The notes beneath the pieces are model-generated. The model was not told the origin of the DNA, made no database searches, and was given only the letters and a program-made list of their open reading frames with translations. 49,354 nucleotides of DNA from Nemertoderma westbladi (taxonomy: Eukaryota > Animalia > Xenacoelomorpha): contig JAUCBJ010003589.1 of assembly GCA_032718475.1 (NCBI GenBank), forward strand, positions 1 through 49,354, in the 5' to 3' direction. This document shows positions 5,471 to 45,734 of the stretch, in pieces (the stretch's first letter is position 1; every line of letters starts with the position of its first letter). The translations under genes and the position numbers were made by a program.

Positions 5471-5555
5471 TAATTACTAGGCTAACAGTGATACTGAATT
5501 ACTAGACTTGCTTAAACTGTAATATAGCAGTAGGCATTCAACTGTACAAACAAAC

Positions 5556-14500: not shown

Positions 14501-15290
14501 ATTTACGGGAATAAATTTAAATTCATATTTTAATGAATTTGATAAATTGTCATTTTATACAATTTATAACATCCCAAAATTCCATTAATTAGTAGATCAT
14601 GGGAGCGGAGATTCACCCTATTAAGTGTATTAGTGTGCGAGAATCTCCAATATATAGTCAATAGCCGATAAAATTCATAAAATCATGTATAGAGAGGATA
14701 TTGACCATTAAAGAATTACTATTAAATAGCATCCCAGATCTGTATGCATGAGAATTACCCTAATTCTACCGCTAGCTTTCCATAATGTCACCATGGCAAC
14801 AACCACGCTAGAATTAGAAGTGAGTTAAAAGAACAATAGAAAGCTTGCCCCATTGAATAGCATAGGGAATAAATAGCGCACTGCTAGTATCCAAGGATAC
14901 ATAATAAATAAAGTAACATTCTGGAAGGCACTGACTAACGGACAAATGGCCCGAATGTGTACAGTTTGTGACAGTTGTGTTGAATTTGTGCATTTATAGG
15001 TGAATGTTACTGCTAAAGTGTGTTTACAGTAGCGAGTCGCAATTGTGAAAGTAACCCTAACTCTCCAGAAAGAACCTGAAGTACATCCAAGCCTTTGGGA
15101 CGGACAGTGGAGTGACTTGTGCCGGTTATCGTTGTCGTTGTGTAGCTACATCGTTGGCGAAAGCACAGCGACGACGGTACATCGGCGCTGAGGATCTTGC
15201 ACTGTCCGGGGGCAAAAGAAGGGTAGGCAGCGACGCCCGCTAGCCTAATATATAAACTCATTATATTATTGATAAACTCATATAGCAAAT

Positions 15291-15668
15291 ATGACTGAGT
15301 TGATAGAAGATGATCTTGGTATCAGGGAGCGATATACTCTACCTTTACAAGCGTTTGTCGATAGCTTGATACGCGGCGACGCTGGTCCAACTACTACGGA
15401 AGATGATGGTCGTTATATCGAACCGCCAATGTCCCCGGATCAACTTACGCGTAAATTGGATTATAGAAAGTTCACCGCTCGCTATACACATCGTAATGGT
15501 ACGTATATGGACTTCTTAACTACTGGCCATCCTATCGATTTACACGATACGGACGATGTAGACACCGAAAGGGAAATGGTTTTATTTAAATATCATACCC
15601 AGCGGAGTCAGCACGATGAACCGAGAATGGAACACGAGAATTCTATTCGAAATCAACTCGAAAGCTAG
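15291..15668 (+). CDS. Small acidic ORF (125 aa) inside copy B, function unknown
   Basis: ATG-initiated, coding-like composition, TATATAAA about 40 bp upstream (15249). No motif recognised. Confidence 0.4.
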   Translation: MTELIEDDLGIRERYTLPLQAFVDSLIRGDAGPTTTEDDGRYIEPPMSPDQLTRKLDYRKFTARYTHRNGTYMDFLTTGHPIDLHDTDDVDTEREMVLFKYHTQRSQHDEPRMEHENSIRNQLES

Positions 15669-16494
15669 AACGTGGAAGAAGGCTTGTAAAGACAAATAGA
15701 GGAGAACCACTGGAGAAGAGACATGGGTTAATGTCCAGGGTCCATAATGTGAATAGTTTTCCCCGGGGCACGGGTGCTCGCGGGCAGTCTCCTTCGGGAG
15801 GCTGTAATTTTCTCTTCCTTCATCGTTTTCCTGTAATTATTGTGATCAGTGTCACAATTAAAAGGCAAGAATGAATGATGACGTGACGGAAAACATGTCC
15901 ATTGTGGTACCTTATGGATACTACCATATCTCCTCCCTCCTCTTTACTCCTCTTATCCCTCTATCTATACTCCCTCTATCTTATCCCTCTATTGAAAATA
16001 CAACATACTTCGTCCCACCTTCTCTTCCCAACGCGCTCGGAGCTTTGGGAGACGATCGACCGATCATTGCCGTATCGTGGTATTGATCATACCGCCTCGT
16101 AATAAACCTCCCATCCCTTACTATTAATCTGGATGCTCATATTGGTGTCCGCACCTCCTGTCCATGTCACACTCTGTTGATATTTATGATATCAACTTCG
16201 TTGTTGATTAGAAAGTCAACCATCAATGATTTCCTTTAGTCCACAACTGTGATACAAGGACTGAAAGGACACGCAGATAGTTTGTGAACAACTGGTACCA
16301 TTATGTGTCTTAAATCTGGTTGTTCACCCCCTAATCACTGGGGATAAATTCATTTGGAGATAGTCTTCGAACGTTTGAATCCTCCTACTGAGAACTGAGA
16401 TCGTATTTCTGAATCTTTCTGAATACGACATAGGTCTTCCCTTGCTCTCTACCACTACCATCAATGGAAGACATATTAGGCATACGACGGGAAT

Positions 16495-18270
16495 ATGGAG
16501 AACATTCCATACCCTTTCGTTGATACTCAGCTGATTGCTCCCTGGGCGGAAGGCCGAGGTTTCTTCCGCACTATGTATGCCAATACACCCAGCGGCATTA
16601 CTAAAGTACAACGAACCTCCATCGGACATCTTGCCTTTCAAGAATATGGATGGAATTTCAAGGTTGGAAATCCTATCAATTACCAACAAGTATATGGAGA
16701 CCATTATTCTCGTTTATACTTTGATGGACCATTGACCGCACCTGGCGCCGTGTATAGCTTTATGAGTGTTCCACTTCGTCCCTCCTTAGCTATATACACG
16801 ATCTTTGAAAACGCAGCACTTGCCGGTTGGCTAGCCGATGTGTGCAGTCGTACCATACACGCCTATCCCTTAATACTTGGAACCAAACTCGCCAAGTTAG
16901 ATGAACACAATAAATTCATCCGCTTCGAATGTTTCAGGCGCTTTCTGACTCCGTTCCGTAACGTTGATAGTCAGTTCAAGGACCGCGCTCTGACCAAACT
17001 CACCCTAAGAGACTCAGCGGCGGAGAAGCTAAACAGCGCGGGATTTGCCCTCTTTCAGGACGTTTGTATACAGAACTTACATTCATCTGTTATACAAAGA
17101 CCCCGAATACCCACGGGTTATTCTGTCGTGGAAGTTCAGACAGTGGGTCCGCTTACGGATACAGCCGCACCTACCTCAGCTATGCAATTGGAAGACGAAC
17201 CAATATGCTTAGAATCTGAAGCGATTCAGCCTACAGCGCCCCGGAGCAGCGATAATGATTACGTCTTGGAGTGGTATCAAGGTCCACAATGTCTCACCGC
17301 ATACGATTATCGACACGCCAACTATGTTTCTCGAAAACGTTGTCGATTATGCGCATCGAGAGACCATTTCACCCCTATGGACTCAGACGTACCCTGCTCC
17401 TATTTCCACGAACAACCGATGATGGAGATCTATTGTGCGTATTGCAGACTTAATAACTCGCACATTTTTTCAGTCTGCCCCCAATTTATGACTCAATGCC
17501 ACCACTGTCAACTTAAAGGACATGCCAGTTATAATTGCCCCTTTAACCGCGATTTAGAAAGCGTAGATGAGATGATTACCCTGCGCTACATCCGAGCTTG
17601 GGAAGCGAACGCAGATTTACATTGTGAGTCCCGCCATCGCTATTACCCTGGACGCTCTTACGAGGGAGTTTACGCGTTCCATCCTTATTTATTCGCGTCT
17701 GTTGAACAAAAAACACGCACACCGAGTTACGAACTAATGAAGCGTGTTGGTGAGTGTATTTCCACCAAATTTGTTCGAAAATATCTCAGGAACGTCAATC
17801 CTAACGATATTACTTCATACCATTTGATCAATTTCATCCGTCAAGACCCTGAGTTTGGCGATTTATTTATCAACTCGCACCCTGAGTTACAGGAAGTATC
17901 TCGACGGCCCTACGAATATCGAGCCCGAGAACGCGAGCTGGAAAGAACCATTAAACCGAGGAAGTTTCTCACCACTCACGGTCCACCTACCGCCATTGTC
18001 CAGACGACCCGTCAGGGACCAGTAGGAGCTGCTGTCCTAAAACGCGCTCTAAAGGCCGTTAGACCTCGCTCCACTGAAGTTGATATCGAGCAACCAGGTA
18101 CTTCGACCGGCGGATACACCGATCGTAATCCTAAACCTTCTGATGCAATTGTATTGCACCCTTCACCCAGGAGTTACAGCCCTCCTAGTAAAGTGGCTCG
18201 CCCCAAAGAGAAAAGGACTCTTGCTAGCCTCAAAAAACTGCGTAAACGCCGTCCGCGTAAGAAAGACTAA
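16495..18270 (+). CDS. Accessory ORF of copy B: 591-aa protein with three CCHC-type knuckles and a basic C-terminus
   Basis: CRLCASRDH..C, CAYCRLNNSHIFSVC and CHHCQLKGHASYNC; tail KKLRKRRPRKKD; ends 78 bp before the 3' LTR. No signal peptide or TM helix visible. Confidence 0.85.
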   Translation: MENIPYPFVDTQLIAPWAEGRGFFRTMYANTPSGITKVQRTSIGHLAFQEYGWNFKVGNPINYQQVYGDHYSRLYFDGPLTAPGAVYSFMSVPLRPSLAIYTIFENAALAGWLADVCSRTIHAYPLILGTKLAKLDEHNKFIRFECFRRFLTPFRNVDSQFKDRALTKLTLRDSAAEKLNSAGFALFQDVCIQNLHSSVIQRPRIPTGYSVVEVQTVGPLTDTAAPTSAMQLEDEPICLESEAIQPTAPRSSDNDYVLEWYQGPQCLTAYDYRHANYVSRKRCRLCASRDHFTPMDSDVPCSYFHEQPMMEIYCAYCRLNNSHIFSVCPQFMTQCHHCQLKGHASYNCPFNRDLESVDEMITLRYIRAWEANADLHCESRHRYYPGRSYEGVYAFHPYLFASVEQKTRTPSYELMKRVGECISTKFVRKYLRNVNPNDITSYHLINFIRQDPEFGDLFINSHPELQEVSRRPYEYRARERELERTIKPRKFLTTHGPPTAIVQTTRQGPVGAAVLKRALKAVRPRSTEVDIEQPGTSTGGYTDRNPKPSDAIVLHPSPRSYSPPSKVARPKEKRTLASLKKLRKRRPRKKD

Positions 18271-18348: not shown

Positions 18349-19514
18349 TGTAAAAGCTTTTGCGGAATTAGCCGGTTATTTTCCCCGTAAAGTGCTCTGT
18401 AGTTGGTTTAACAGGCATAAAAAGCCGTGTCCTTACTGTACTGGTGTTTTAGGGGACATAAAAAGCTATTTCTTCTGTATGTGTACTTTAGCGGACATAA
18501 TTAGCAATTCTATAATGCAATGCGCTAGATCCTCTTGAAACAGTGTAGTTACTATGACGACAGCTAACAGCTGAGCTGTACATGTGTAGCTTTTCCCTTG
18601 TTCTCTGGTGTTTCTTTGTTCGGTCAACCAATCAGAGCGATTCTCCTGCTTTTTGTACAGAAACCTCCGAGAAATCGCGCAATGCATTATGGGTCAATGT
18701 TTACATTTTGTCCTGAGCCTAGAAGACTGGCTTCGGATTCTCTGTGTTTTCAGTCTTTAGCCCAACATTAGTAGGCTTAATTATAGAACGTATATCTGTT
18801 ATCTAACCAATTCTCACATATCATATCAATTTATACCTTAACATTTTACTGCTATTTACTGTCGGTTATTCATTATATCTGTTGATGGAATATTATTATA
18901 TTTGGAATACCGATAAATAATTACAAACCCTCAATCTTCTTGATATACTGAAGGTAAGAGAGACCGGTTACATATAACGATTGCGACTTACATTAAAGTG
19001 GTTTTGAAGTGAATCTAATGCTATTTCATAGGCACTACATGTATTGGTTGTTGTTCTCTTTATATGTGACTAAAATTAGTGAAGGTCGGCAGATTGGTGT
19101 GCAGTATTGTGCAGTATTGTGTATGATTGTGACTGATAACAAAGCATCTCCTAAAGAATGCGCCATATACGTGAATCTATAGCCTTCCCGTTGTGTCTAG
19201 TTTAAGTCATAACTCTGTTTACATATTTAGAGCGCCATGTCCTAAAGGAACTGTTAATATTTCCCGAAAGTGAATAATATTTGTCAGAGATTATATATTA
19301 CGATCAGTCGAATAATACAGTAGGCCTACACCGCAATACGGTTAGGCTTCCGAATCCAGTCTCCCGGGTATATCCAGCGGGTGAATGGTCGCGCATAGAC
19401 TGGCTTCGGCTAATGTAGTGTATCAAATACTTGTCATAGGCTAAAGACGATTTATTATCTAGAAGACATCCAAATTTGGCAGGTTAAACTGCTAAAGGTC
19501 TAAAAGCGCGAACA
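18349..19514 (+). repeat. 3' LTR of copy B (1166 bp)
   Basis: TGTAAAAGC...AAAAGCGCGAACA, preceded by a short purine tract; homologous to 3614-4813. Confidence 0.92.
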
Positions 19515-20470
19515 CTGATTGCTGCAATAATTTCATCAGGAATCCCATATAATGAAAGTATGCTGAACATACGTGAGCGGGAGACTGAATCAAAGGCCTT
19601 GAAGAAGTCAACAAAGATAACAGCCAGATGCCTGTCTTTCTTTTTTGAAAATTCTTCAATTATCCTTCTAAGTGCCAAAATGGGCGCCATGGTCCCACGA
19701 CCTTTACGGAACCCATTCTGATTTCCACGGAGCAGTCTCTCAATGGGATCCCTGATGCGATCTAATAGAATTCTATTGTATAGCTTTGCAGCAATCGAGA
19801 TCAATGAGATTCCCCGAAAAGAACCATAAAGTGCTTCTTCCAAAAAGCCCTTCTTGGGAACTGGCACCAACTTATTTGTTTTCATTTCTTGTGGGACTCT
19901 TGTTGTTCGGTACATGTCTACTATGATGGGATATATGAGCTTTAAACACTCAGGTATTTTAAAGACCTCAGGGGGAACACCATCTACTCTTCTGGCACGA
20001 TTGGTCTTAATGCTCTTTGCAGCAGCCTTCACTTCTGCAAAGGAGATATCGCCAATGGGAATATCTGGGAGTACAGACTCAGACACTCAGACACGCGACG
20101 ACCGAGCCGGTATTTCTCCTGGAGGGTTCTCATACTCATATCTTTCAGTTGCGAGAGTAAACCGCTTGTGGTCGCAACTCCTACAAGCGTCTTCGCAGTA
20201 GGTCGCCGTTGGTTGATTACCTTCCGCCGACCTTGTCAGCATGTCTAGCCGTTGGTTGATTACCTTCCGCCTATCCATGGCCTACAGCCCTGCTGCCGAC
20301 TGTAAGGGTCCCTTTGTTACACCTTGAACCAAGTGTGCCTTCTGGGTTAGGTTACCTAACAATGGTAGAAGAGCATCCAGTATAGACAGAGCGGGTGGTG
20401 TATCATCTCTATTGCAGATGCGTACTGCCTTTGCCTTCAATGGTGCCCTAGGCGCTATAGCCCTCAATGA
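19515..20470 (-). mobile_element. Non-LTR retrotransposon (RTE-like) remnant: N-terminal RT region plus putative 5' UTR
   Basis: ORF 20086-19515 has DGVPPE, VPVPKKG, FRGISLISIAAKLYNRIL, QNGFRKGRGT and FVDFFKAFDSV. The frame is cut at IIAAIS by the LTR end. The extent of 20087-20470 is inferred. Confidence 0.85.
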
Positions 20471-21593
20471 CTTATTTAGTTGACGGGGCTAAAACCATCC
20501 CACTCTTGATCAACTAAATAATGAATAGGCTATGCTTATCGGGCCTGCCCTACTGGGCTGACAGCTACAGGTAGTACCACATTACTGCCATAGTGGTAGC
20601 AGGACCTGGGGACCTGACCTGACTAATCAGGTCAGGAAAGGTCATGGTGACTTACAGATATGTTTTAATTCGTTGCTATACGGAACCATCTGGTAATTAA
20701 AAAACTTAAAGATAATAAGATATGTTTTTAGATGCCATTTAAAATGATTGATTAAAAAACGAATAATTACAAGCTGAATTGTTGTAGGACACCGTGATGA
20801 GCTTTGTGTTCTTGCTCCCACTGTAATGTGGGGGGGGGGGGGGGGGGGGGGGCTTACACCGTCGGCAATGTCAGGTATGTCAGACCCGGAAGGATCTGTA
20901 TAGTATAGGTAATAATAGTTAATAAAACACTGATTGTACAGTAATGGTTGATATGGTCACTAATCTCAGGCGAATTGGAAAGTACCACCATCGGCGTACC
21001 ATACTACAGTACTGTGTAATCGATATACAAGCAATTGCTGATGACAAGAGAAATTGAACTTTGAACTACAGAAATATTTGCATTATTAAGTTATTGCAAA
21101 ACTGGAGATTGCATAGGCTAAAACATTCACAATTAATAACATTGATAATCTTGTTACTTTTATATTGGTGTTTTTAATCAAAAAATACAACAAGGTGAGA
21201 TTTAAATTTATAGGACAAAAAATAAATGTATATGGGGTGGGACATTGTATTTTGATAGGTATTTCCCATTATTGTACCGCTGAAATGAAATATAATAGTA
21301 TAATAATAAAACTATGAATCTGTCGGGATAGAGGTAAAGTGTATATTGAGAGTCTTTATTCAACCTTGGGTGAAAGTGAATAGTAGTCTGCCTTATAGGT
21401 AACTGCCAAGAGAGATGAAATCCGGTATTTTGTGATTCACGTTCAGTTAAATCAACCGACTCAGACATTATTTAAATTACTGGTCTAGCTTACCGTATTG
21501 GTTTTCTTCTTTCGAATAAAATAAATCTTCCTTGAAATGGATAATTATTGAAAAGTGATCTATTTTGTAGAAACTACGCAAGATCAAGTCATA

Positions 21594-23642
21594 ATGGAAC
21601 CAGCAAATAACACAGAGCTGGACATGGAGTGCTCAATGTGTCTCGGCATCCTATACAACCCTAGGGTTCTCACTTGCCAACACACATACTGTTTCCGATG
21701 CATTAAAGGGATTTCTAACATAACCACGAGTGGAACGGCAATAGAATGCCCCCAATGCAGAAAAGTAACAATAGTAGACTACATTGAGTCTTTATCAACA
21801 AATCATCTTATTGCTTCTATTGTAGAAAGAATTAGGTCAACGAAAACCTGTGAATCTTGTAACTCAAAGAAAGGCATAAAGCCATGCGAAGGTTGTCTTC
21901 TCGAGTTGTGTAAGGATTGTGAGTTGTTCCATGTTTGTGACGATGGTGGTCGTATTAGACCAGATGATGTTGGGTCTGAGGATACGTTATGCGGGGCTGT
22001 TGGTGGTGCTGATGCTAAAGGGGAAAAAGGGGGGAAAAATATGTGTTATAAACATCGATTAGCTAAGAGGCATTACTGCAAGGAATGTGATTCAGTTGTT
22101 TGCCGAAGATGTCATTTAGAAAACAAAGGTAACAAGAGTCATGACATAATGCCTTCTGTTAATGTTGCTGAAAGCTTTCGGAAAAAACTACAAGAAAGTC
22201 CTGGAAATGCATCTTTTCAATTACGCTCCCGTTTAGCCATGCTTGACGATGTTTCAGATGAGTTAGATGAAGTAACAGATGTTTGTATTGATGATATTGA
22301 ACGTCATATTTCTAAAATAACATCCAGGCTAAATACGGCAATGGTAAGTTTGAAACAGAGCGTAATTGTGAAAAATGAAGAGACAAAAAGAAATATTATG
22401 AAATCTCGAAGAAACTTAGAAAATATTTTAATACCCAAAGAATCTGAATATTATTGCAAATTAGATAACTCACAACTTATCAATGAACTAGATGGAGCTA
22501 AACGATTAATTGATCGATTTGAAAATATTTATGAGAAAATTGGTGAGGTTGAAATCATTGAGGTACCTGCAATGCGATTTGTAACGACAGAAGATTATGA
22601 AATATCAAATGGATTGGATAGAATTATTGGAAAGATAGAGATCGATGCGGTTGTACATGAACAAAATGAAGCAATTCCTAAAGTAAATGAGAAACTTGCA
22701 ACTGAACCGCTACAGAACGGTGTTGATATACCGCCGCTAAATAACATCTTCATTAACATTTACGAGAAAAGCATTCTTGAAAAACCAAAACTCATTGAAA
22801 CTTGTAGGATTGACTGCAAAAAAATGGGCGTTTCAACAGTTGGAACGATTGGTTGGGATGGTGTATATTGTATAACAGACACTAAGAAACAACAGCTGGT
22901 TTTCCGTCAACTGGATTACTCCACAACCGGCAATATATTATCGATTAATCGAGATCCCGTCAACTTACATCCACCACCCGAATGCATCAAGCCGGGGAAA
23001 CCAATAAAACACATTGATGGTTGGGTCGGAAAATGGATAGCCGCCACTGAAAACTGTATTTATGGTGTAAACAATGGCAAAGTGAAACATTTGTGTATTA
23101 GAAAACACAAAAGTATAGAAGTTGGGTCTATTGTGGGGGTAGGTGTTCACCAGAATGTAGGGTTTCTTGCCTGTAATAGTAACTACGTTGTTGTTGTTGG
23201 CATGGATAACGTTGAGGTTAAAGATGTGTGTCTTTTAAATCACCCCGGTGTATTAGCTAGTTGTTGGGGGTACCGTTACTATGGTTTTTTTGAAGTCGAT
23301 AAGGGAATGTTTACCGTATATTGTTACAACTTCCATGAAGAAGGCGGGTCAAATAAACAACACGTTTCCTTAGCTTGTGAGTATAACGCAATTGATTGTG
23401 GAAAATCAACTCCTATGACCGGATTGTGTCAGTTTGATAATGGCAGCTATTGGATAGTTCCTTTACAAGAAGATGGTAAAGATATTATTGCTGTTTATAA
23501 CGTTTGTGTTGGGTCTAATAAGGTTGAAAGATTAGGTACTATTAACGTAAAAGGCTTTGGAGGGGCTGTTTGTGCTTATGGGGTGAAGGGTTTCTTTGTT
23601 TCTGAAACTAATACCAATAATTTCATTCACATTAAATATTAA
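21594..23642 (+). CDS. TRIM-family E3 ligase (RING, two B-boxes, coiled coil, divergent beta-propeller-like C-terminus), single coding exon
   Basis: C3HC4 RING CSMC..CQHTYCFRC..CPQC; B-boxes CESC..CEGC..CKDC..H and CYKH..YCKEC..VCRRC..H; helical segment; beta-strand-rich tail. First ATG is 21594, just after a TTTTGTAG acceptor. Confidence 0.9.
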   Translation: MEPANNTELDMECSMCLGILYNPRVLTCQHTYCFRCIKGISNITTSGTAIECPQCRKVTIVDYIESLSTNHLIASIVERIRSTKTCESCNSKKGIKPCEGCLLELCKDCELFHVCDDGGRIRPDDVGSEDTLCGAVGGADAKGEKGGKNMCYKHRLAKRHYCKECDSVVCRRCHLENKGNKSHDIMPSVNVAESFRKKLQESPGNASFQLRSRLAMLDDVSDELDEVTDVCIDDIERHISKITSRLNTAMVSLKQSVIVKNEETKRNIMKSRRNLENILIPKESEYYCKLDNSQLINELDGAKRLIDRFENIYEKIGEVEIIEVPAMRFVTTEDYEISNGLDRIIGKIEIDAVVHEQNEAIPKVNEKLATEPLQNGVDIPPLNNIFINIYEKSILEKPKLIETCRIDCKKMGVSTVGTIGWDGVYCITDTKKQQLVFRQLDYSTTGNILSINRDPVNLHPPPECIKPGKPIKHIDGWVGKWIAATENCIYGVNNGKVKHLCIRKHKSIEVGSIVGVGVHQNVGFLACNSNYVVVVGMDNVEVKDVCLLNHPGVLASCWGYRYYGFFEVDKGMFTVYCYNFHEEGGSNKQHVSLACEYNAIDCGKSTPMTGLCQFDNGSYWIVPLQEDGKDIIAVYNVCVGSNKVERLGTINVKGFGGAVCAYGVKGFFVSETNTNNFIHIKY

Positions 23643-25535: not shown

Positions 25536-25856
25536 CTATAATATAAGAAGTTATATAATATTTAATTGACGCAAATCCAATGTCAGCGAATTAATATCTT
25601 GTCTCGACAAATTACCAATGTTACAGTATTATAATCAAAACAATAAACGAAAGTCAATAGAACAGGTTACAGTTTAATTTTTGATCGAAATCTGCTGCAG
25701 TTTGCATAGATTTTCTCCTGAAGAGGGATAAATGTTTGGAAGCGCCTATAGGGAATAATGGAGAAATGGAAAATATATGAAAATAAAAAAACGCGGAAAA
25801 TTCAAATAAACAAATAGTAGTTTCTTCAAAATACATAAAATTTATATTTTAGAGAA

Positions 25857-26339
25857 AATATATGCTGTTGTTACGGAATATATGCTGTTGTTACGGAATA
25901 TATGCTGTTGTTACGGAATATATGCTGTTGTTACGGAATATATGCTGTTGTTACGAAATATATGCTGTTGTTACGGAATATATGCTGTTGTTACGGAATA
26001 TATGCTGTTGTTACGGAATATATGCTGTTGTTACGGAATATATGCTGTTGTTACGGAATATATGCTGTTGTTACGGAATATATGCTGTTGTTACGGAATA
26101 TATGCTGTTGTTACGGAATATATGCTGTTGTTACGGAATATATGCTGTTGTTACGGAATATATGCTGTTGTTACGGAATATATGCTGTTGTTACGGAATA
26201 TATGCTGTTGTTACGGAATATATGCTGTTGTTACGGAATATATGCTGTTGTTACGGAATATATGCTGTTGTTACGGAATATATGCTGTTGTTACGGAATA
26301 TATGCTGTTGTTACGGAATATATGCTGTTGTTACGGAAT
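25857..26339. repeat. 20-bp minisatellite (AATATATGCTGTTGTTACGG) x~24
   Basis: Near-perfect copies, one variant at ~25956; lies in the intron of the two-exon gene. Confidence 0.98.
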
Positions 26340-27257
26340 TTTAGTACTGTATGTTATATGTATATGCCCACATTAATATTTCGGAATATAATCTTAAGAT
26401 CATTAGAATATAAATAGATTCTAGAACATAATATTTAAGCAATTTTGGAAATTAATCCGTATTTGTCCCCCATGTTGCAAAATTAAGAAACATTGACTAT
26501 AATGTCTATAACCATAATTGTATTTTTTTGTAGTTGCGGCATTGAAGTGTGAGCAGTTGGCTTGTAACCTAGGTAATAAGAAAATAATATGTAATGATTA
26601 TATAATTTATATTAAATAATTTAATTAAACATGGGTGCTATTATTATTATTATGTTTATTATCGTACATATTATGATATAGTACAGTCAATCATCATTTA
26701 AATTTAAATAAATCATAATTAAAAAAACGACTTCCAGGACAAATTATTACCTTACATGGTTGATAAGTCCATGGGATAATTTTACAACCAATCATGTATT
26801 TTCTTATTACCATGGCAACCGATAACATTATTTTGTATATTGAATTTCCGTCACAAACATATATTCAACAAGTGAAGTCATTATTCTGTTGTTACCATAG
26901 CAACTGGCATATATATTATTTAAGTAGTTCGTATTTGGCAATTTATTGACATCAGGAAGTTAACCATATCAAATGTTATTGAAAAAAATTGTGGGTCATC
27001 CGGGCGTTTTTAGTACCAACAACCATAGCAACATGAGTTATATTCTGGAACACATTATAAAACTAATAAAACATTGCAGTAGTAAACAAATATACTCGCT
27101 AAATGTTAATAACAATCCTAAAATATAATTAAAGGAACTCGAAATAGCTTAGATTATAACAACTAATAACGTAGTTGCTTCAAAATTCATAAAAATTTGT
27201 ATTTTTAGAAAAATAAACGTTGACATCGATCCACCTGTGTAGTTATAGTGAACTAAC

Positions 27258-31348: not shown

Positions 31349-32261
31349 CTGAAACATACAAAACCAAAAGTCAGTAAATACTAATAACAAAAAAATACTT
31401 CGCGTAGCACTTAAAGCTATTGGCAGATTTCCGGAAACAGGTTTTTTCTTCAAATTTAAGTTCCTGTAACCATGCAGGGACAGGATACGATACGATACGA
31501 AAACGGATTTTCGTATTTCGTATCGCAGTATTTTAATCGTATCGAATTTCGTATCGTATCATACAAATTAACTTCGTATAATACGAATAAATATTTTTCG
31601 TATTTTCGTAACTTATTATTTTGTAAATATTAATGTTTTCAACAGTCAAACCCGAGATCAACACCACTTATTTCTTTTGTAGATAAAATGATAAAATGTG
31701 TAAGGAGGATCGTTACTCACATTGAAATAAACTGTAGAAAAATGATAAAAAGACCACTGAAATATATAATCTAATTAATACAGTTCAAATAAACTTGTGA
31801 GGAGAACTCTAATCGAGCTTATAAGGCATTTATTATAAGAAGGGATCTAGGGGTCTTAACCTCGAATGATAAGTTTATTTTTACCGAAAATAACTTATCT
31901 TTTATTGGCGCAATTGTAGGACTAATCCCATCACATGCGTACGTGGTTTGGAGAGATATGAGATATTAATTTCAAGAAAAATTACGCGATTCCTAAATTT
32001 GTACACTACCCGGTTAAAAAGTACGCATGTGATGGGATTAGTCCTACAATTGCGCCAATAAAAGATAAGTTATTTTCGGTAAAAATAAACTTATCATTCG
32101 AGGTTAAGACCCCTAGATCCCTTCCTATAATAAATGTATAATAACAAACACCTCGAAAAATACAGCTTGCCAACACATTGTTACTATCAATAATAAAAAA
32201 AGCAGGGGCTAATAAAATGGCAGCTGTCTTTGAAATTAATACTCCATATCTCAAGAACCTG

Positions 32262-32314
32262 TGGCCTAGTGGTTGTAGTCTCGGCTTCCGCCTCGAGGTC
32301 CCAGGTTCGAATCC
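32262..32314 (+). promoter_or_regulatory. tRNA-type internal Pol III promoter
   Basis: A box TGGCCTAGTGG at 32262-32272 and B box GGTTCGAATCC at 32304-32314, with tRNA-like spacing. Confidence 0.8.
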
Positions 32315-32317
32315 GAC

Positions 32318-32360
32318 ACCACGCTGATGAGACCCAGTAAGGTCGAAACGCGTACGTGGT
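32318..32360 (+). ncRNA. Minimal type I hammerhead ribozyme
   Basis: Stem I ACCACG/CGTGGT, core CTGATGA, stem II GACC-cagtaa-GGTC, GAAA, palindromic stem III ACGCGT, cleavage triplet GUA (cut after 32354). Confidence 0.92.
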
Positions 32361-33994
32361 TTGGAGAGATATGAGATATTAATTTCAAGAAAAATTACGC
32401 GATTCCTAAATTTGTACACTACCCGGTTAAAAAGTACGCATGTGATGGGATTAGTCCCACAATTGCGCCAATAAAAGATAAGTTATTTTTGGTAAAAATA
32501 AACTTATCATTCGAGGTTAAGACCCCTAGATCCCTTCTTATAATAAATGTATAATAACAAACACCTCGAAAAATACAGCTTGCCAACACATTGTTACTAT
32601 CAATTACTAGAACGCCATCAAGATGGCTTTAAACGAACCTGTCTTACACAGACTCCAAGAAACAGATGGGATTGGAAGATGCAAACCAAGAATGACTTGC
32701 ATCAACCAAAAAACTGCCTCCCATCTAATGTAATACACTTCGCCTAGGCAAACAAATCATAATCACAATTACTACGATGATGTGTGAAATGGTATCCATA
32801 TCCGCAACCTGAGAAACGGCCCAAAAGAGCAGTTTATTCTGCGGAGGGGTCTTTTCTGTATTAGATAAATAAAATAAAGAACACTATAATTACAGTATTT
32901 ATACCTGATACATTCTCAGTTAGCCTAATAAAAACATCGGAGCAACCAATATAATGTACATGTACAAGCATCCTATGAAAGTTTGTGAAATGTTCCCTAA
33001 GTCTACCCAACAGCCGTTGGTACCCGGCTGGCAGCCACCCTGGTTCAGTTTTATGGTTTTGTTAGTTTAATCGACAGCTGTTGTAAACGTCCCAGATATA
33101 CAAAACCTACTAAGCCTTTGCATTACAATTGAGCTTAGCCTAAGTTGATGACAGTATTATAACGATGACAATTAGGCCCTATAGATACATACGATATATA
33201 AATGATGTACTGCTTGACATTACACTAACTGGCTGAATAGAGATAGAACTATAATAATACGTTGGGCATTCTGTCAGATTTCAGTAGTAAGTAACCTCAT
33301 AATAATTGCTAAATATCAATCACCTGAAAAACATTTCAAGCAAGGGAGTTGTGGGTATTTAATTTCGCGTTCAATAATGTTGAAAATATGCAAATATTTC
33401 GAATATCGCACTTCGAATCGTTCCCAACTTTTTTATTCAACAACTAGACAACAATTGATAAATACTTGCGTTTACAATTTTACAATGCATGCAAGTGGTT
33501 TCAAGCCATTTGGTGAACATACATAGTGACATATATAGTGATATAGTGATATAGGTAAATATATATATCCATCGTGTTTTTGCCGGCCTCAGCTTTAGAC
33601 AAAAACTACCCAGTCTAAAGACAGGTTCGTTATAAGGCATTGATGTTATGATAAAGGCCCTAGTGAGAGAAATAAAACACGGTTTTATTCTTGTATTAGT
33701 TTAACTTTTATTCCATATTGGTACATCAAATTCAAAAGTATTCCACAAATAACGGTATTTGGCCTAGGTACAGCAGTACAGTACAGTATGCACAAAGTGA
33801 CATGGTAATATGGTAACGCCTACTTTTAGGCGCCGTTGCATAACGTCCTTCAGTATAGCCGCCATGTTGCTGTGGTTGACATATTGGAACATTGTTAAAT
33901 AAAAAATATTTGCCTATTATAGAGAGATTTATATGATTTTCTAAGTGTAATACAAAATACAATACAATATTTTATCAACTCTTAGATAAAATAC

Positions 33995-34463
33995 AATACG
34001 AAAAAATACGAAACGTTTTTCGTATTTCGTATCGTATCTTGGATTTTTCGTATCGTATCGTATTTTCTAAAAATTGCATTCGTATCGTATCGTATCGTGA
34101 AAAATTGGTTCGTATCGTAACGTATTTTCGTATCATATCGTATCGTATCGTATCGTATCGTATCGTATCTTGAATTTTTCGTATCGTATCGTATTTTCTA
34201 AAAATTGCATTCGTATCGTATCGTATCGTGAAAAATTGGTTCGTATCGTAACGTATTTTCGTATCATATCGTATCGTATCGTATCGTATCGTATCTTGAA
34301 TTTTTCGTATCGTATCGTATTTTCTAAAAATTGCATTCGTATCGTATCGTATCGTGAAAAATTGGTTCGTATCGTATCGTATCGTATCGTATCGTATCGT
34401 ATCGTATCGTATCGTATCGTATCGTATCGTATCGTATCGTATCGTATCGTATCGTATCGTATC
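33995..34463. repeat. (CGTAT)n microsatellite within ~125-130-bp units x3
   Basis: TTTTCTAAAAATTGCATTCGTATCG...GAAAAATTGGTTCG recurs three times; pure pentamer run at 34368-34463. Confidence 0.95.
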
Positions 34464-35088
34464 CTGTCCCTGCCTGTAACTATAGTCAAACTTGATTGTG
34501 ATCGTTTTAAATGGATTGTGTGAAGGCTTGTGAATTTTTTAAACTGTATGTTGAACTGAATGAAACACGAAATATAAAATATACGATCACTCCAAACTCG
34601 ATCGCTAAACTTCGCCGGTAATCGGTATAATGGTTCGGATTAGGTATACTTTAACAATGTACGACAATTGTCACCTAAATAAATAGGTCGTGGGGTCCTC
34701 AACCCGTATAGTAGTCAACATCAAGGTCAACTTTATATTTTACGAAATTTAAATATTTAGCATGAGCGACCTTGAAAATGTCAAGCTACCCTGAAATTTA
34801 ATTCGACTCACCAGATTCTGTCTTAACAAATACCTTATCAACTTCTCAAACTCAAAGTTTATGGACTGAGATTTCACAACCCACATTATTGGCAATTTTG
34901 TCCTGGTCAATTTAGCTATAGCAATTCTGTACTTTAAAATAGCTAAACGTTCTAGAATAATGTATTGAAAATATTATGTTAAATACCGGTAATTTGAGCA
35001 AAATTCATACACACACTCAAAAGTGTCACTTTGGTGTTTGTGGGGCGTTCCAAAACAGAACTCAATTAATATCCAATATTGGTTAGTA

Positions 35089-35646
35089 CTCTGGAGAACC
35101 GAATATACGGGGTGCGGTGGCTGGAATAAACGTGGTGGGTAGAAAATTTAACATACTTAGTAAACATACAGTGTAGGCGCACAGGTACAGTTTGTAGTAC
35201 CTGCGGTTACAGGTGGTATACTCGGTACACGGTTTTTGATTTCTTTCACTTTCAACTCTCAATTATTAGAGTGCAACCTACTACAGTAGTACCTGCGGTT
35301 ACAGGTGGTATACTCGGTACACGGTTTTTGATTTATTTCAATTTCAACACTCAATTATTAATATGAGTGCAACCTACTACAGTAGTACCTACGGTTACCG
35401 GTGGTATACTCGGTACACGGTTTTTGTTTTCTTTCATTTTCAACTCTCAATTATTAATATGAGTGCAACCGGTTATTTACTCATAATAAAAAGTGTACTA
35501 AATTTTTTAGATGTTTGTAATTAGGGATAAGATAATTTTTAAGATTTTAAGATAAATTTTAAGATAATCTGGAATAAGAGAATTGTGGGTGGATTTTTTT
35601 TCAAAAATTAATTGCCGTGTCGCCCCGTCTATTCGGGACTCCAGAG
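35089..35646. mobile_element. TA-flanked MITE (Tc1/mariner-like) with an internal ~93-bp x3 tandem repeat
   Basis: TA-CTCTGGAGAACCGAATATACGGGG...CCCCGTCTATTCGGGACTCCAGAG-TA. Repeat GTAGTACCTGCGGTTACAGGTGGTATACTCGG at ~35194, 35286 and 35382. Confidence 0.75.
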
Positions 35647-35905: not shown

Positions 35906-38276
35906 GTTTCTCACATACTATGACTGGGTTTCTCATACTATGACTGGGTTTCTCATACTATGACTGGGTTTCTCATACTATGACCAGGTTTCTCATACTA
36001 TGGCTCTGATTCTCACAATATAGCTGAGTTTCTCATACTATGACTGGGTTTCTCATACTATGACTGGGTTTCTCATACTATGACTGGGTTTCTCATACTA
36101 TGACTGGGTTTCTCATACTATGACAAGGTTTCTCATACTATGGCTCTGATTCTCACAATATAGCTGAGTTTCTCATACTATGACTGGGTTTCTCATACTA
36201 TGACTGGGTTTCTCATACTATGACTGGGTTTCTCATACTATGACCAGGTTTCTCATACTATGGCTCTGATTCTCACAATATAGCTGAGTTTCTCATACTA
36301 TGACTGGGTTTCTCATACTATGATTGGGTTTCTCATACTATGACTGGGTTTCTCATACTATGACTGGGTTTCTCATACTATGACTGGGTTTCTCATACTA
36401 TGACCAGGTTTCTCATACTATGGCTCTGATTCTCACAATATAGCTGAGTTTCTCATACTATGACTGGGTTTCTCATACTATGACTGGGTTTCTCATACTA
36501 TGACTGGGTTTCTCATACTATGACTGGGTTTCTCATACTATGACTGGGTTTCTCATACTATGACTGGGATTCTCATACTATGACCAGGTTTCTCATACTA
36601 TGGCTCTGATTCTCACAATATAGCTGAGTTTCTCATACTATGACTGGGTTTCTCATACTATGACTGGGTTTCTCATACTATGACTGGGTTTCTCATACTA
36701 TGACCAGGTTTCTCATACTATGGCTCTGATTCTCACAATATAGCGAGTTTCTCATACTATGACTGGGTTTCTCATACTATGACTGGGTTTCTCATACTAT
36801 GACTGGGTTTCTCATACTATGACAAGGTTTCTCATACTATGGCTCTGATTCTCACAATATAGCTGAGTTTCTCATACTATGACTGGGTTTCTCATACTAT
36901 GACTGGGTTTCTCATACTATGACTGGGTTTCTCATACTATGACCAGGTTGCTCATACTATGGCTCTGATTCTCACAATATAGCTGAGTTTCTCATACTAT
37001 GACTGGGTTTCTCATACTATGATTGGGTTTCTCATACTATGACTGGGTTTCTCATACTATGACTGGGTTTCTCATACTATGACTGGGTTTCTCATACTAT
37101 GACCAGGTTTCTCATACTATGGCTCTGATTCTCACAATATAGCTGAGTTTCTCATACTATGACTGGGTTTCTCATACTATGACTGGGTTTATCATACTAT
37201 GACTGGGTTTCTCATACTATGACTGGGTTTCTCATACTATGGCTAGGTTTCTCATACTATGACTGGGTTTCTCATACTATGACTGGGTTTCTCATACTAT
37301 GACCAGGTTTCTCATACTATGGCTCTGATTCTCACAATATAGCTGAGTTTCTCATACTATGGCTGTGTTTCTCATACGATGACAGGGTTTTCTAACACAA
37401 TGGATGGGTTTCTCACATTATGGGTGGGTTTCTTATATTATGCTGTTTCTCAACTATGCTGGTTTCTCAAACTATGACTGGGTTTCTCAACTATGCTGTT
37501 TCTCAACTATGCTGGATTTCTCACTATGGCGTTTCTCACATATGGGTTTCTCATATAGGCTGTTTCTCAAACTACTGTTTCATCTATGGCTGGGTTTCTC
37601 ACTATGCTTGGTTTCTCATATATGCTGGTTTCTCATACTACGGATGGTTATCTTATATTATGACTGAGTATCTCACAATATAGCAGGGTTTCTCATATTA
37701 TGGCTGGGTTTCTAACAAACCATGACTGGGTTTCTAATACTATGGCTGGGTTTCTCATACTATGACTGGGTTTATCATACTATGGCGGGTTTCTTACAAT
37801 ATAGCTTGGTTTCTCATACTATGGCTAGATTTCTCATACTATGGCTAGATTTCTCATACTATGGCTGGGTTTATCATACTATGACTGGGTTTCTCATACT
37901 ATGGCTGGGTTTCTCAAACTATGACTCGGTTTCTCATACTATGGCTGTGTTTCTCAGTCACAATATAGCAGGGTTAATCATACTATGGCTGGGTTTCTAA
38001 CAATATAGCTTGGTTTCTCATACTATGGCTAGATTTCTCATACTATGGACTATGGCTAGATTTCTCATACTATGGCTGGGTTTCTCACAATATAGCTTGG
38101 TTTCTTATATTATGGCTGGATTTCTCAAACGATGACTGGGTTTCTCATATTATGGATGGGTTTCTCATACTATGACAGCATTTCTCACACTATAGCTGTG
38201 TTTTCTCACACTATAGCTGGGTTTCTCACATAATAGCTGTGTTTTCTCACACTATAACAGGGTTTTCTCACACAAT
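35906..38276. repeat. 20-bp satellite (GTTTCTCATACTATGACTGG) with higher-order structure
   Basis: Homogeneous to ~37380, degenerate afterwards, with recurring variant monomers. Confidence 0.98.
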
Positions 38277-38292
38277 ATTCGAATCAACTCAC

Positions 38293-38407
38293 GTCTGTAA
38301 AATCCCAAAGTTTCACTGATCCATCCTCAGAGCCGCATACTACTTGTGTATCGTTGTTGCCAAGGCAACACTCCAGTTTGTATTCGGTATTGGTGTGTCC
38401 GGTATAC
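38293..38407 (-). CDS. WDR83: WDR83 exon 6
   Basis: YTGHTNTEYKLECCLGNNDTQVVCGSEDGSVKLWDF; AG/GT borders. Confidence 0.93.
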
Positions 38408-38659
38408 CTGGATCGGAAATAAAATCAATAGCCAATCCTAACAGTTACGTACGGACGGATGCTACTGGCGATTACAGAAAATTTGTTAAATAAAAAATTA
38501 ATAATATTAATTAGATTTTTTTTTAATATCTCAATACCCTGAGAATTAGGAGAATTTATGTGCGAATTAAAATCGATAATAAATAAAATTATAAATTTAA
38601 TTGTGTCATTGAAACTGTGTTAAACAATTGAAGATGATTCGTATTATTCACCAACTTAC

Positions 38660-38768
38660 TCGTTCAACAATTCTCCAGTGTCCCTGTCTATTAATCTAAG
38701 AGTAGAATCTAGTGTCGCCACAAGTAGACATTGGGTATCGCGAGTAAACGCAACACACGTAACGGATT
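38660..38768 (-). CDS. WDR83: WDR83 exon 5
   Basis: SVTCVAFTRDTQCLLVATLDSTLRLIDRDTGELLNE; AG/GT borders. Confidence 0.93.
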
Positions 38769-39649
38769 CTAGAACATAAGACGGATATTAATTAAAACAA
38801 TAGCTAAATCAGCGACTGCTTTATCAGCTGATATTTTAAGCAGCCCATCAGTGACTAGAAGGTCACTACTTGTCGTATGTTTATCGTGATCGTGAATGGG
38901 TTTATCATTAATTCTCGCTTTTTGTTTACGCATTGTTGGGGCAACAAACCAGTATTATATCCGTTTAATCCTGATTTTTTGAGGTAATATACTCGAAACA
39001 TGAATTTATTTAAGATTGTGAAATATTATGAGAATATACTAGCTAGTAATCGATTGTACTAAGAAACTATATATTTAAAGCATTGCTACGCAAGGTGGAA
39101 CTGCGATGGAAGTAGCTAAACTTAATCTTTACGTTTTGTGCTGATTTTTGAGAAGCCTACCGTAGCGGATTTCAATTTCACTCCATAATGATTTCCTTAT
39201 GCCATTTTATTATCAGTCTGTTTGGATTTGCCCAATAATAAAGTTAGACCAAAGCTTGCGTAAGAATGCGAAATTAAAATCATTAAGGAAAGGAAATTGA
39301 GATGCATTACTGTATGCCAAATTAAATAATTATTTTCAAAAATAATTGTTGCTTTTTACTGTAGCCTGAGAGTGGCGAACTTGTAGCATTGGAGGCGGAC
39401 AACAATGGCTATAAGATAACCTTCCGTTTTGTCTTTAAAGGGGTTTTTTTGAGTCGAAACTACAAAAATGAAAGTTTGTAATAATATGATATGTGGAAAC
39501 AAAACGACAGTGGGTGGTGTTGAGCATCGAACATAAATACAAACTAATTGATTTATCATGTTAATCATTGACAGTACTGTACAGCAAACCTCTGAGCATG
39601 AAAGTAACATATTTCTTAGCCATCCTCAGCAAAAAGCTCGAATTAATGA

Positions 39650-43234: not shown

Positions 43235-43809
43235 CTGAATATATAATTAAGGCGATCAGGACAATCGAAAGTTATTAATTAAAATATAAAAAAAAAAATA
43301 AAAATTACAGGGTTTATATTTTGCGAACGCAACTTTTGATGGCTTTTTTAACGTAAATCTTAAATTTTATTACATTTTTAAAGATATCCCAAGTGAATGC
43401 ATGAAAAGAGCTTTGCTCTACGTAAAATACCGCGTAAACCTCACTCGCTGCGATCCCAGGTGTATTTCCATTCTGAACATCAAATACACCAATAATTGTG
43501 TAAAAACGCCATCGAAATAACGCCCCCCTTACAATTAAATAAGCAACTTAAACGCCTTCGACGAATAAACTCCTCGGCGTTTAATAATATTACAATGTGG
43601 GGCGAGCCACGATTTGTGAGAGATGCCCATAGAAACACAATTACTGAGATAAACAATTATTATTAATATAGGGAGGGACAAATATCGTGTCGACAAATGT
43701 CTGTCTGTCTGTTTAACAACATTCTTTATTAGGGTATTTAGATTCAAAATGCTGAAAATATAGAACATAAACATAAACGCCCCTACTAGATCCACACAAT
43801 TTGGAACTT

Positions 43810-44615
43810 AAACGCCTCCCCGAATAAACGCCCTCCCCGAATAAACGCCTCCCCCGAATAAACGCCTCCCCCAAATAAACGCCTCCCGCGAATAAACGTC
43901 CTCCCCGAATAAACGCCTCCCCCGAATAAACGCCTCCCCCAAATAAACGTCTCCCCCGAATAAACGTCTCCCCCGAATAAACGCCTCCCCCGAATAAACG
44001 CCTACCCGAATAAACGCCTCCCCCGAATAAACGCCTCCCCCGAATAAACGCCTCCCCCGAATAAACGCCTCCCCCGAATAAACGCCTACCCGAATAAACG
44101 CCTCCCCCGAATAAACGCCTCCCCCGAATAAACGCCTCCCCCTAATAAACGCCTCCCCCGAATAAACGCCTCCCCCGAATAAACGCCTCCCCCGAATAAA
44201 CGCCTCCCCCGAATAAACGCCTCCCCCGAATAAACGCCTCCCCCGAATAAACGCCTCCCCCGAATAAACGCCTCCCCCGAATAAACGCCTCCCCCGAATA
44301 AACGCCTCCCCCGAATAAACGCCTCCCCCGAATAAACGCCTCCCCCGAATAAACGCCTCCCCCGAATAAACGCCTCCCCCGAATAAACGCCTCCCCCGAA
44401 TAAACGCCTCCCCCGAATAAACGCCTCCCCGAATAAACGCCTCCCCCGAATAAACGCCTCCCCCGAATAAACGCCTCCCCCGAATAAACACCTCCCCCGA
44501 ATAAACGCCCCCCTCGAATAAACGCCTCCCCCGAATAAACGCCTCCCCCGAATAAACGCCCCCCTCGAATAAACGCCTCCCCGAATAAACGTCCCCCTCG
44601 AATAAACGCCTCCCC
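43810..44615. repeat. 18-bp minisatellite (CGAATAAACGCCTCCCC[C]) x~45
   Basis: Direct reading; core homogeneous, edges variant. Confidence 0.98.
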
Positions 44616-44650
44616 AATTGGCATGATTAAAAACTGTTAAGTTGTAATGG

Positions 44651-45734
44651 AAGGGGGGGGGGGGGGGGTTACCCCTTTTCTTTTTTTCATCAGATTTTTT
44701 AAATGTGTTTTCCGATGTAAAATGTTATGGTAATTCCGAATCTGAAATTAGTTTTTCGATAAGTTGTTTTGTTCTCGACACCTGTACCACATTTGGCACC
44801 AAAAAAGACCAAGAAACTCCCAGAAATGTCGAAATATTTCGCCTTTTGTCGGAATCAGAGCCGAAAATTAGCCTATAGGTATCAAAACCACAAAAGACCA
44901 TTATTGAAACATTTTAAAACATATTCACTTTTGGTGCATGTTTGGTCAGTTAGTTGTAATCAGGAGGAAAATTTAATTTAAAACACGTTTTTCTCGGTTT
45001 ATCATATTTTTTCCTACTAGTTCTGTGATTTTTAACAGATTTTAATTTTGTTTGCGTTTTTTCAAAGCTCCTGGTGTCGCCAACAAACGATACCACCAGA
45101 TTAATTTGAATTATATTAAAAGTTACAGCATTTAAAGTATTAAAATATGCTAAAAAATCTAGTATTTTCAAAATTCGGGTATTTTTTAGCATATTTTGAT
45201 ATTTTAAATGCTGTAAATTTTAATATAATAAAAAAAAAATCTGGTAGTTTGTTGGCGACACCAGAGCTTCGAAAAAAACGCAAAGAGAATTAAAATCGGT
45301 TAAAAATTTCAGAACTATTAGGAAAAAAAATGATAAACCGAGAAAAACGTGTTTTAAATTTCCTTAGCCGATTACAACTGACCAAACATGCACCAAAAGT
45401 GAAATTTGTTTTAATTTTTTCAAAAATGATCTTATTTTGCGGCTTTGATACCAATATTTTTAATTTATTGCTAATTTTTGGCGCTGATTCCGTAAATGGC
45501 AAAATATTTCGACATTTCTGGGTGTTTGTTGGTCTGTTTTGGTGACAAATGTGGTGCTGCACCAAAATTAAAAATTTTCAAATTTTGGATGAAAATGACA
45601 AAAGTTGCCATAACTAGAAAACTAAACAACTTATCGTAAAACTGATTTTAGATTCGGAATCACCATAAAATTTTACATCGGAAAACAAAATGAAAAAAAT
45701 TGATGAAAAAAAAGACAAGGGGTAAACCCCCCTT
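44651..45734. mobile_element. ~1.08-kb foldback MITE
   Basis: Arms are diverged reverse complements (GGGGTTACCCCTT...TTTTCCGATGTAAAA / TTTTACATCGGAAAA...AAGGGGTAAACCCC), centre ~45190. Ends approximate. Confidence 0.8.

Follow-up and report, generated by a model that had tools for sequence, protein, structure and literature searches.

What kind of element carries a Pol III-type promoter only a few nucleotides ahead of a hammerhead ribozyme, and how might such an element be copied? The question is raised by a locus on the + strand of contig JAUCBJ010003589.1 of Nemertoderma westbladi (GCA_032718475.1), whose 49,354 nt were analysed as one stretch and are referred to here as the window. A first-pass annotation of this DNA had described a non-coding replicon that joins the two motifs and lies antisense to WDR83. 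The placement is borne out by matches on the − strand: 42939–43271 matches WDR83 residues 121–195 (E 8e-19), two exons at 38287–38787 match WD40, and 31193–31558 matches WDR83 residues 272–305 (E 1.7e-5), with other WD40 proteins scoring higher over this last segment. Because the element occupies the + strand between WD40 exons of the − strand, an antisense position within a late intron of a WDR83-matching gene is supported.

The promoter is recognizable from two boxes, an A box (TGGCCTAGTGG) at 32262–32272 and a B box (GGTTCGAATCC) at 32304–32314; neither strand of the window has another match to the B-box pattern. Both lie where they had been reported, with 3 nt between the B box and stem I of the ribozyme, and the pair was found in 0 of 200 dinucleotide shuffles of the window; the patterns used for the boxes and for the hammerhead were consensus sequences, written after the site was known. 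The head that contains them (32255–32314, + strand), for which tRNA numbering suggests a start at 32255, was not called as a tRNA by ARAGORN or by the Rfam tRNA model at E values up to 10, and its predicted fold is a rod and not a cloverleaf. The earlier wording of a tRNA-like promoter thus stands for the two boxes and their spacing only. The last bases of the B box are predicted to pair within the lower extension of stem I. The scarcity of T runs was considered as a sign of Pol III transcription and set aside as not beyond chance (P = 0.45). The unit's only run of four or more T on the sense strand (32486–32490) is T5 here, and both the upstream copy and most of the run depth have T4; it is a possible leaky terminator that, 132 nt past the cut, could halt Pol III before a full monomer is made.

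The ribozyme itself (32318–32360, + strand) has all the core and stem parts of a type I hammerhead, as claimed. Stem I pairs ACCACG (32318–32323) with CGTGGT (32355–32360), the core CTGATGA occupies 32324–32330, stem II (GACC/GGTC, 4 bp with a 6-nt loop) spans 32331–32344, GAAA lies at 32345–32348, and the GUA cleavage triplet ends at 32354, after which the cut is predicted. Helix I comprises 6 bp and a 5-bp lower extension and helix III only 1–2 bp. The palindrome noted earlier in stem III is present as the self-complementary hexamer ACGCGT (32348–32353), and in modelling it joins two ribozyme strands as an intermolecular stem III. Such a layout is that of the canonical metazoan type I hammerhead, whose weak helix III makes dimeric cleavage the favoured route; the minimal hammerhead (min-HHR) of Penelope elements has instead a helix II of 7–8 bp, a helix I of 4–5 bp and an extra nucleotide before stem II (PMC4209133). 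Because helix II here is 4 bp, helix I is 6 bp and the extra nucleotide is missing, the min-HHR assignment is rejected and the word minimal has to be dropped; by its layout the ribozyme is a canonical metazoan type I hammerhead, and self-cleavage is predicted.

A hammerhead descriptor matched once in the window, at the + strand site, and not at all on the − strand, with 1 match in 200 dinucleotide shuffles. The Rfam scan that had been proposed as a check recovered a hammerhead in part: Hammerhead_HH9 aligns to 32308–32375 with 26.6 bits (E values of 0.001 and 5.6e-5), short of the 52 set as its gathering score, and no Rfam family reached its gathering score anywhere in the window. Matches to MIR8007 and MIR5565, also under gathering, arise from an inverted copy described below and were discarded. 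The near-complementary arms said to bracket the module (32230–32252 and 32366–32388, + strand) are complementary at 20 of their 23 positions, and a G–U pair accounts for one of the other three; none of 150 shuffles did as well (maximum 16). The enclosing stretch 32225–32395 folds at −64.2 kcal/mol (z = −6.44), and 0 of 200 shuffles were as stable. These motifs exceed chance.

The module belongs to a repeat of 413 bp (GC 39%, one type I hammerhead), represented at this locus by 1.6 tandem units and an inverted arm of 116 bp. The period, given correctly in the first-pass annotation, is evident in the repetition of 31937–32191 at 32350–32604 with 3 differences, and the unit is non-coding, as that annotation also held: the sole frame of more than 100 codons across it lies on the − strand and has no known role. 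Counted from cut site to cut site, the full unit (31942–32354, 413 nt, + strand) would be the RNA monomer or circle. It is followed by a partial second unit of 250 nt (32355–32604, + strand, 3 differences from 31942–32191) that stops at the fixed genomic end of the family, 32604. The upstream unit begins at the cut site and therefore lacks the 5′ half of the ribozyme.

The inverted arm (31827–31942, − strand) is the reverse complement of 32021–32136 and 32434–32549. It meets the forward unit via a 6-nt microhomology (31937–31942) that overlaps the cut site, and its outer end is the equivalent of 32549, which leaves 55 nt up to the right end. The stretch in question (32550–32604, + strand; A/C-rich, with 24 A and 13 C) is present at the right end and absent from the outer end of the arm, and is a candidate for a one-sided tail of the Penelope type; the end at 32604 lies in a small predicted stem–loop after the A/C-rich stretch. 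The start of the forward copy at the cut site can be read also as a microhomology join, a 6-nt inverted microhomology being on offer at 67 of the 413 positions of the unit. Since arm and unit both match the 5 nt that precede the cut, the cDNA may have passed it. A candidate target-site duplication (TTATAAGGCATT), a 12-mer at 31819–31830 that occurs again at 33630–33641, was not accepted, since the recurrence is 1025 nt past the end and inside the terminus of another repeat, with an empirical chance of 5.8%; in non-LTR retrozymes such duplications, where they occur, exceed 4 bp.

Part of the stretch was present in 7 of 12 sequencing runs, none of the seven recorded as RNA, and four of these were compared with 32192–33400. 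Three are DNA runs (X1 and X2 from one sample, and X3; two samples and two studies in all), in which 4744, 2598 and 2185 contigs, respectively, matched this interval. Summed depth was 2.1–8.9e5 over the unit against 0.3–7.9e4 from 32725 on, figures that give no copy number, the flank being itself repetitive. At least 29, 24 and 21 contigs of X1, X2 and X3 leave the element at 32604, among the 19 loose ends listed (with 1179 more), and the sequences that they enter are A/T-rich and mutually different (agreement 0.46–0.50). One fixed end at many sites points to repeated insertion. Joints from 32604 to 32195–32199 occur in all three DNA runs, one of them at a contig depth of 10979, and at least 10 joint rows make this link among the best 12 of 80. 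No locus with two intact ribozymes was seen, and the joints in the DNA runs can arise from partial tandems such as this one too.

Within the unit, the variants present at 5% or more amount to six substitutions and two indels, and the majority sequence differs from the studied copy at 5 of the 6 substitutions while keeping core, stems and boxes intact. None of these variants falls in the 65 nt of the boxes and ribozyme, against 8 in the other 348 nt, a difference that is not significant (about P = 0.25). Over the whole stretch, 284, 193 and 219 contigs of X1, X2 and X3 are less than 90% alike, and older copies may exist. The repeat is thus many-copy, near-identical, joined head-to-tail and fixed at one end, which together with the boxes upstream of the ribozyme supports a mobile repeat; its copies are too uniform for covariation. 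The fourth run, X4, carries another organism's label and is guessed to be RNA. It yielded three contigs, two on the flank at depth 3 and one that is cyclic, of 441 nt (a 411-nt cycle plus a 30-nt overlap) at depth 13.8. X4 was not taken as evidence of expression, trace DNA explaining the contigs as well as RNA.

It is unlikely that the repeat is simply a tRNA-derived SINE (32255–32604: head, body and AAT/A-rich tail) mobilised by a LINE, in which the hammerhead is a passenger and the tandem a local accident. The order of head, body and tail fits such an origin, as does the termination of copies at 32604 in AAT/A-rich letters, and a reverse transcriptase fragment (PF00078) is encoded at 19484–20083 on the − strand of the window. 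LINE-type insertion, too, is known to give 5′ inversions. The difficulty lies at the other end of the unit: copies do not begin at the Pol III start, and the 63 nt before the predicted start (32192–32254, + strand) show a depth of coverage like that of the remaining unit and are joined head-to-tail to 32604 in 3 of 3 DNA runs. That these upstream nucleotides travel with the unit argues for a multimeric or circular template, since an ordinary SINE should be unable to copy sequence upstream of its own start, which a multimer or circle could supply. In addition, one arm of the outer stem lies before the start and the other beyond the cut, and an active ribozyme 100 nt past the start would strip the promoter from any single-unit transcript.

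We consider it more likely than not that the repeat is a young non-LTR retrozyme, one that Pol III would transcribe, that would cleave its own RNA, and that a Penelope-like element would probably return to DNA. Transcription would start near 32255 by tRNA numbering; at a locus holding at least two full units, Pol III would have to read through both the T4 run and the next promoter. Two hammerheads would then cut, probably as a dimer via the swapped self-complementary stem III, to release a monomer whose 3′ end holds the promoter. This monomer may be circularised by a host ligase, with head and ribozyme enclosed by the outer stem of the self-paired circle; the predicted 413-nt circle folds at −104.4 kcal/mol (z = −5.0; 0 of 60 shuffles), and in the model stems I and II form with probability 0.76–1.0 and the outer stem is kept. 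A Penelope-type reverse transcriptase might next begin at an internal position of the RNA, 250 nt past the cut site, and copy the multimer or circle for more than one round, which would produce partial tandems that restore the promoter, while a second cDNA begun at a site 55 nt earlier could give the inverted arm.

The studied copy would have no such fate. With one intact ribozyme, its upstream unit lacking the 5′ half, this locus does not release a 413-nt monomer, and judged from its arrangement it is a dead end for monomer release, which would take a locus with two intact ribozymes. Double cleavage is impossible here, so that the earlier expectation of a circle of ~413 nt has to be given up for this copy. 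It is predicted to yield a 100-nt head together with a 3′ piece at least about 136 nt long, this being the length at which the first T run would end it unless read through.

There is reason to think that the insertion machinery is of the Penelope type. The described marks of Penelope-like insertion are a partial tandem, an adjacent inverted 5′-truncated copy and a one-sided tail of 30–40 bp (PMC8557442), and Penelope reverse transcriptase starts within its own RNA at two sites, in an AC-rich stem–loop, and extends both nicked strands (PMC11167929). Animal retrozymes have been argued to be non-autonomous Penelope derivatives (bioRxiv 10.64898/2026.07.22.740005). Counting against the proposed cycle are an Rfam score at about half of the gathering score, the failure of most Xenopus retrozyme dimers to cleave in vitro (bioRxiv 10.64898/2026.07.22.740005), and insertion by an anole Penelope protein that did not require ribozyme cleavage (PMC11167929). 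Mobilisation by a Penelope-like element is accordingly described here as likely, on insertion marks from one locus and with a tail of 55 nt against the 30–40 nt described. No Penelope ORF was found in the 13 frames scanned within the window.

A more specific version of the retrozyme reading may be ventured, with confidence falling short of even. The repeat would be another Penelope-dependent SINE, assembled independently of the first: a retrozyme, still young, with a captured tRNA promoter remodelled into a rod inside a three-way RNA fold and with Pol III-driven self-cleaving circles, whose insertions would show both start sites of the Penelope reverse transcriptase (32604 and 32549) and would begin 5′ at the ribozyme cut. 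If this were true, the design of Sm-alpha, the circles of retrozymes and Penelope mobilisation would become one testable cycle.

The same insertion marks could be expected if the unit were a pLTR, the terminal repeat of an autonomous Penelope-like element, here in the form of a truncated insertion, with boxes and ribozyme belonging to that element. The Xenopus retrozymes are pLTR-related, 24 of 57 families having matched 22 transposable elements, of which 21 were Penelope-like (bioRxiv 10.64898/2026.07.22.740005). We regard this as improbable, given that the unit closes on itself at a period of 411–413 nt, leaving no space for an ORF, and that its ribozyme is canonical as in retrozymes, whereas metazoan pLTRs carry the min-HHR; the retrozyme explanation would nonetheless allow descent from a pLTR. 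Nor does it seem at all likely that a satellite-type repeat has spread at the DNA level with ribozyme and promoter no longer working, a view that can draw on the sub-threshold Rfam score and on the inactivity of most tested Xenopus dimers (in vitro cleavage was absent in 8 of 9 Xenopus retrozyme dimers; bioRxiv 10.64898/2026.07.22.740005). The fixed end, with its differently flanked contigs in every DNA run, and the inverted arm speak for repeated insertion, and the majority sequence keeps core, stems and boxes.

A viroid-like replicon copying RNA to RNA, its genomic copies mere by-products, is very improbable: the strong self-pairing of the predicted circle suits it and such copying has been suggested as possible in retrozymes (PMC7761336), but the − strand has no hammerhead, the copies are near-identical, and a DNA-level promoter with insertion marks of the reverse transcriptase type would suffice. 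The term replicon, applied to the element in the first-pass annotation, is likewise not retained, the genomic footprint being that of reverse transcription. The retrozyme, Pol III-transcribed and Penelope-copied, remains the reading that we favour.

Searches for relatives were directed at several collections. A metagenome scan for a B box with the hammerhead core returned 3 loci, none of them related: in two cases a bacterial tRNA with a hairpin behind it, and in the third a locus that has no Rfam match. The exact ribozyme core was found 0 times in a collection of (prokaryotic) genome contigs. A looser core occurs at 128 or more loci in viral contigs; among the matches listed, 0 of 16 BLAST matches extend past the ribozyme region, and a B-box-like word lies in the preceding 60 nt in 1 of 127 distinct contexts. 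An absence of relatives from prokaryotic, viral and metagenome collections is as expected for an animal repeat. In the literature, covered in part, with few subscription papers and outside Repbase, no tRNA-promoter hammerhead repeat was found beyond Schistosoma; a paper that covers Pol III promoters in non-autonomous LTR elements has, in the portion drawn on here, nothing on a promoter–hammerhead design (PMC10886601).

The closest known design is that of Schistosoma, to which the locus had been likened earlier, and the likeness holds in its logic. The SINE-like repeats of Schistosoma have a promoter and then a hammerhead, cleavage gives a monomer with its Pol III promoter at the 3′ end, and single copies for this reason cannot propagate, tandems being needed (PMC6765202). 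More than 38,000 hammerhead motif candidates are reported for S. mansoni, and Sm-alpha is a tRNA-related SINE with a hammerhead (PMC2770079). Sm-alpha and Sj-alpha share with the element described here a repeated unit in which a tRNA-type promoter precedes a canonical type I hammerhead (PMC6765202; PMC2770079), a promoter at the 3′ end of the monomer (predicted here), the need for tandems, and many copies. The accounts of Sm-alpha, compared by description only and as far as drawn on here, include no outer stem, circles, inverted arm or tail, and Sm-alpha resembles tRNA-Gln whereas the head here was given no parent tRNA (PMC6765202; PMC2770079). Protein searches aimed at the host lineage gave no match, and the nearest TRIM clusters, a weak pointer, are those of echinoderms and molluscs, so that the host looks like an invertebrate other than a schistosome. 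The family is probably a new one of a known kind, the promoter and hammerhead tandem design having already been described for Schistosoma. The earlier suggestion of a probable new family thus fares well in having no match in Rfam or in the prokaryotic and viral collections, and less well in its design, which is known (PMC6765202).

With the non-LTR retrozymes of metazoans the element has in common a non-coding tandem unit of 150–450 bp, a GC content below 50%, a type I hammerhead, and a self-paired predicted circle in which the ribozyme is free to fold (PMC7229834), as well as the lack of LTR, PBS and PPT and a suspected Penelope partner (PMC7229834; bioRxiv 10.64898/2026.07.22.740005). Circles of metazoan retrozymes have been closed in vitro by tRNA ligase (PMC7229834). 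An "active" retrozyme has been taken to have two consecutive complete motifs (bioRxiv 10.64898/2026.07.22.740005), and this locus, with one ribozyme, is outside that definition. Retrozymes were said in a 2020 review to seem without promoters (PMC7761336), unlike the element here with its A and B boxes.

To EN+ Penelope-like elements the locus is similar in its partial tandem, inverted 5′-truncated neighbour and candidate one-sided tail (PMC8557442), and in A/T-rich flanks and a fixed end that lies downstream of a type I hammerhead, within an A/C-rich stem–loop region (PMC11167929; PMC4209133). It differs from them in having no reverse transcriptase/GIY-YIG ORF, a canonical and not a minimal hammerhead, the longer tail, and an internal Pol III-type promoter.

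Two questions are open for animal retrozymes, namely how they are transcribed (PMC7761336) and what mobilises them, for which Penelope-like elements have been proposed from co-occurrence and kinship (bioRxiv 10.64898/2026.07.22.740005; PMC7229834). What this repeat appears to add, as far as its letters can tell, is clear promoter boxes in a class said to seem promoterless, together with marks of the Penelope type. The repeat opens no new class; if the favoured reading is true, the design of promoter then ribozyme would not be confined to schistosomes. The presence of promoter boxes and Penelope-type marks in one young element would make both the transcription and the mobilisation of retrozymes testable.

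The inverted arm of the ribozyme element (31827–31942, minus strand) can be compared with the corresponding sequence in the two copies of the unit, at 32125 and 32538, and its letters are shared with both: two majority letters are common to the arm and the upstream copy, and one minor letter is common to the arm and the downstream copy. Recurrent mutation, gene conversion, mixed templates and an assembly artefact are all candidate readings of this mixed pattern. A hexamer in the body of the unit (32434–32439) is the source of the microhomology at the inversion, and is also complementary to 32350–32355, the region of stem III and the cut site. Alternative pairing between these two segments could block the ribozyme.

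Among the matches listed, two of the DNA sequencing runs (X2 and X3) contained internally deleted variants of the 413-bp unit at low depth, one of which skips 32461–32545 (depth 1838–4313), and their presence suggests derived subfamilies. One viral contig also has a B-box-like word ∼20 nt upstream of its hammerhead core (1 of 127 contexts among the matches listed).

Elsewhere the window carries a BEL/Pao retrotransposon (5523–13521, plus strand) with DUF1759 and Peptidase_A17 matches and stops in frame, and a reverse transcriptase fragment (19484–20083, minus strand; PF00078) that by eye looks non-LTR-like. Tandem arrays lie at 35914–37000 and beyond, 25810–26417, 43713–44724 and 35177–35470; one is a 20-bp array, another a 96-bp triple, and the remaining two show as repetitive reading frames. 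A RING/B-box (TRIM-like) protein of 696 aa is encoded in one frame at 21552–23642 (plus strand), its closest atlas clusters being mainly, if weakly, echinoderm and mollusc. Two further plus-strand open frames, of 596 codons with Cys/His-rich, knuckle-like stretches (16480–18270) and of 130 codons (15276–15668), had no Pfam match.

Directly adjoining the right end of the ribozyme element is a further repeat (32606–33665), and the letters before 32606 are loose in 30–34 contigs per DNA run among the matches listed. This whole region is flanked by two TCGTA-rich stretches (31471–31625 and 33980–34476) with 30-nt inverted termini that are 97% complementary, and because these enclose both repeats, the ribozyme element and its neighbor may be nested inside an older non-autonomous DNA transposon. 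The neighboring repeat itself has ACTAG at both ends, a subterminal inverted repeat (AACGAACCTGTCTT) at both ends and a small hairpin close to its left end, and is presumably MITE- or Helentron-like.
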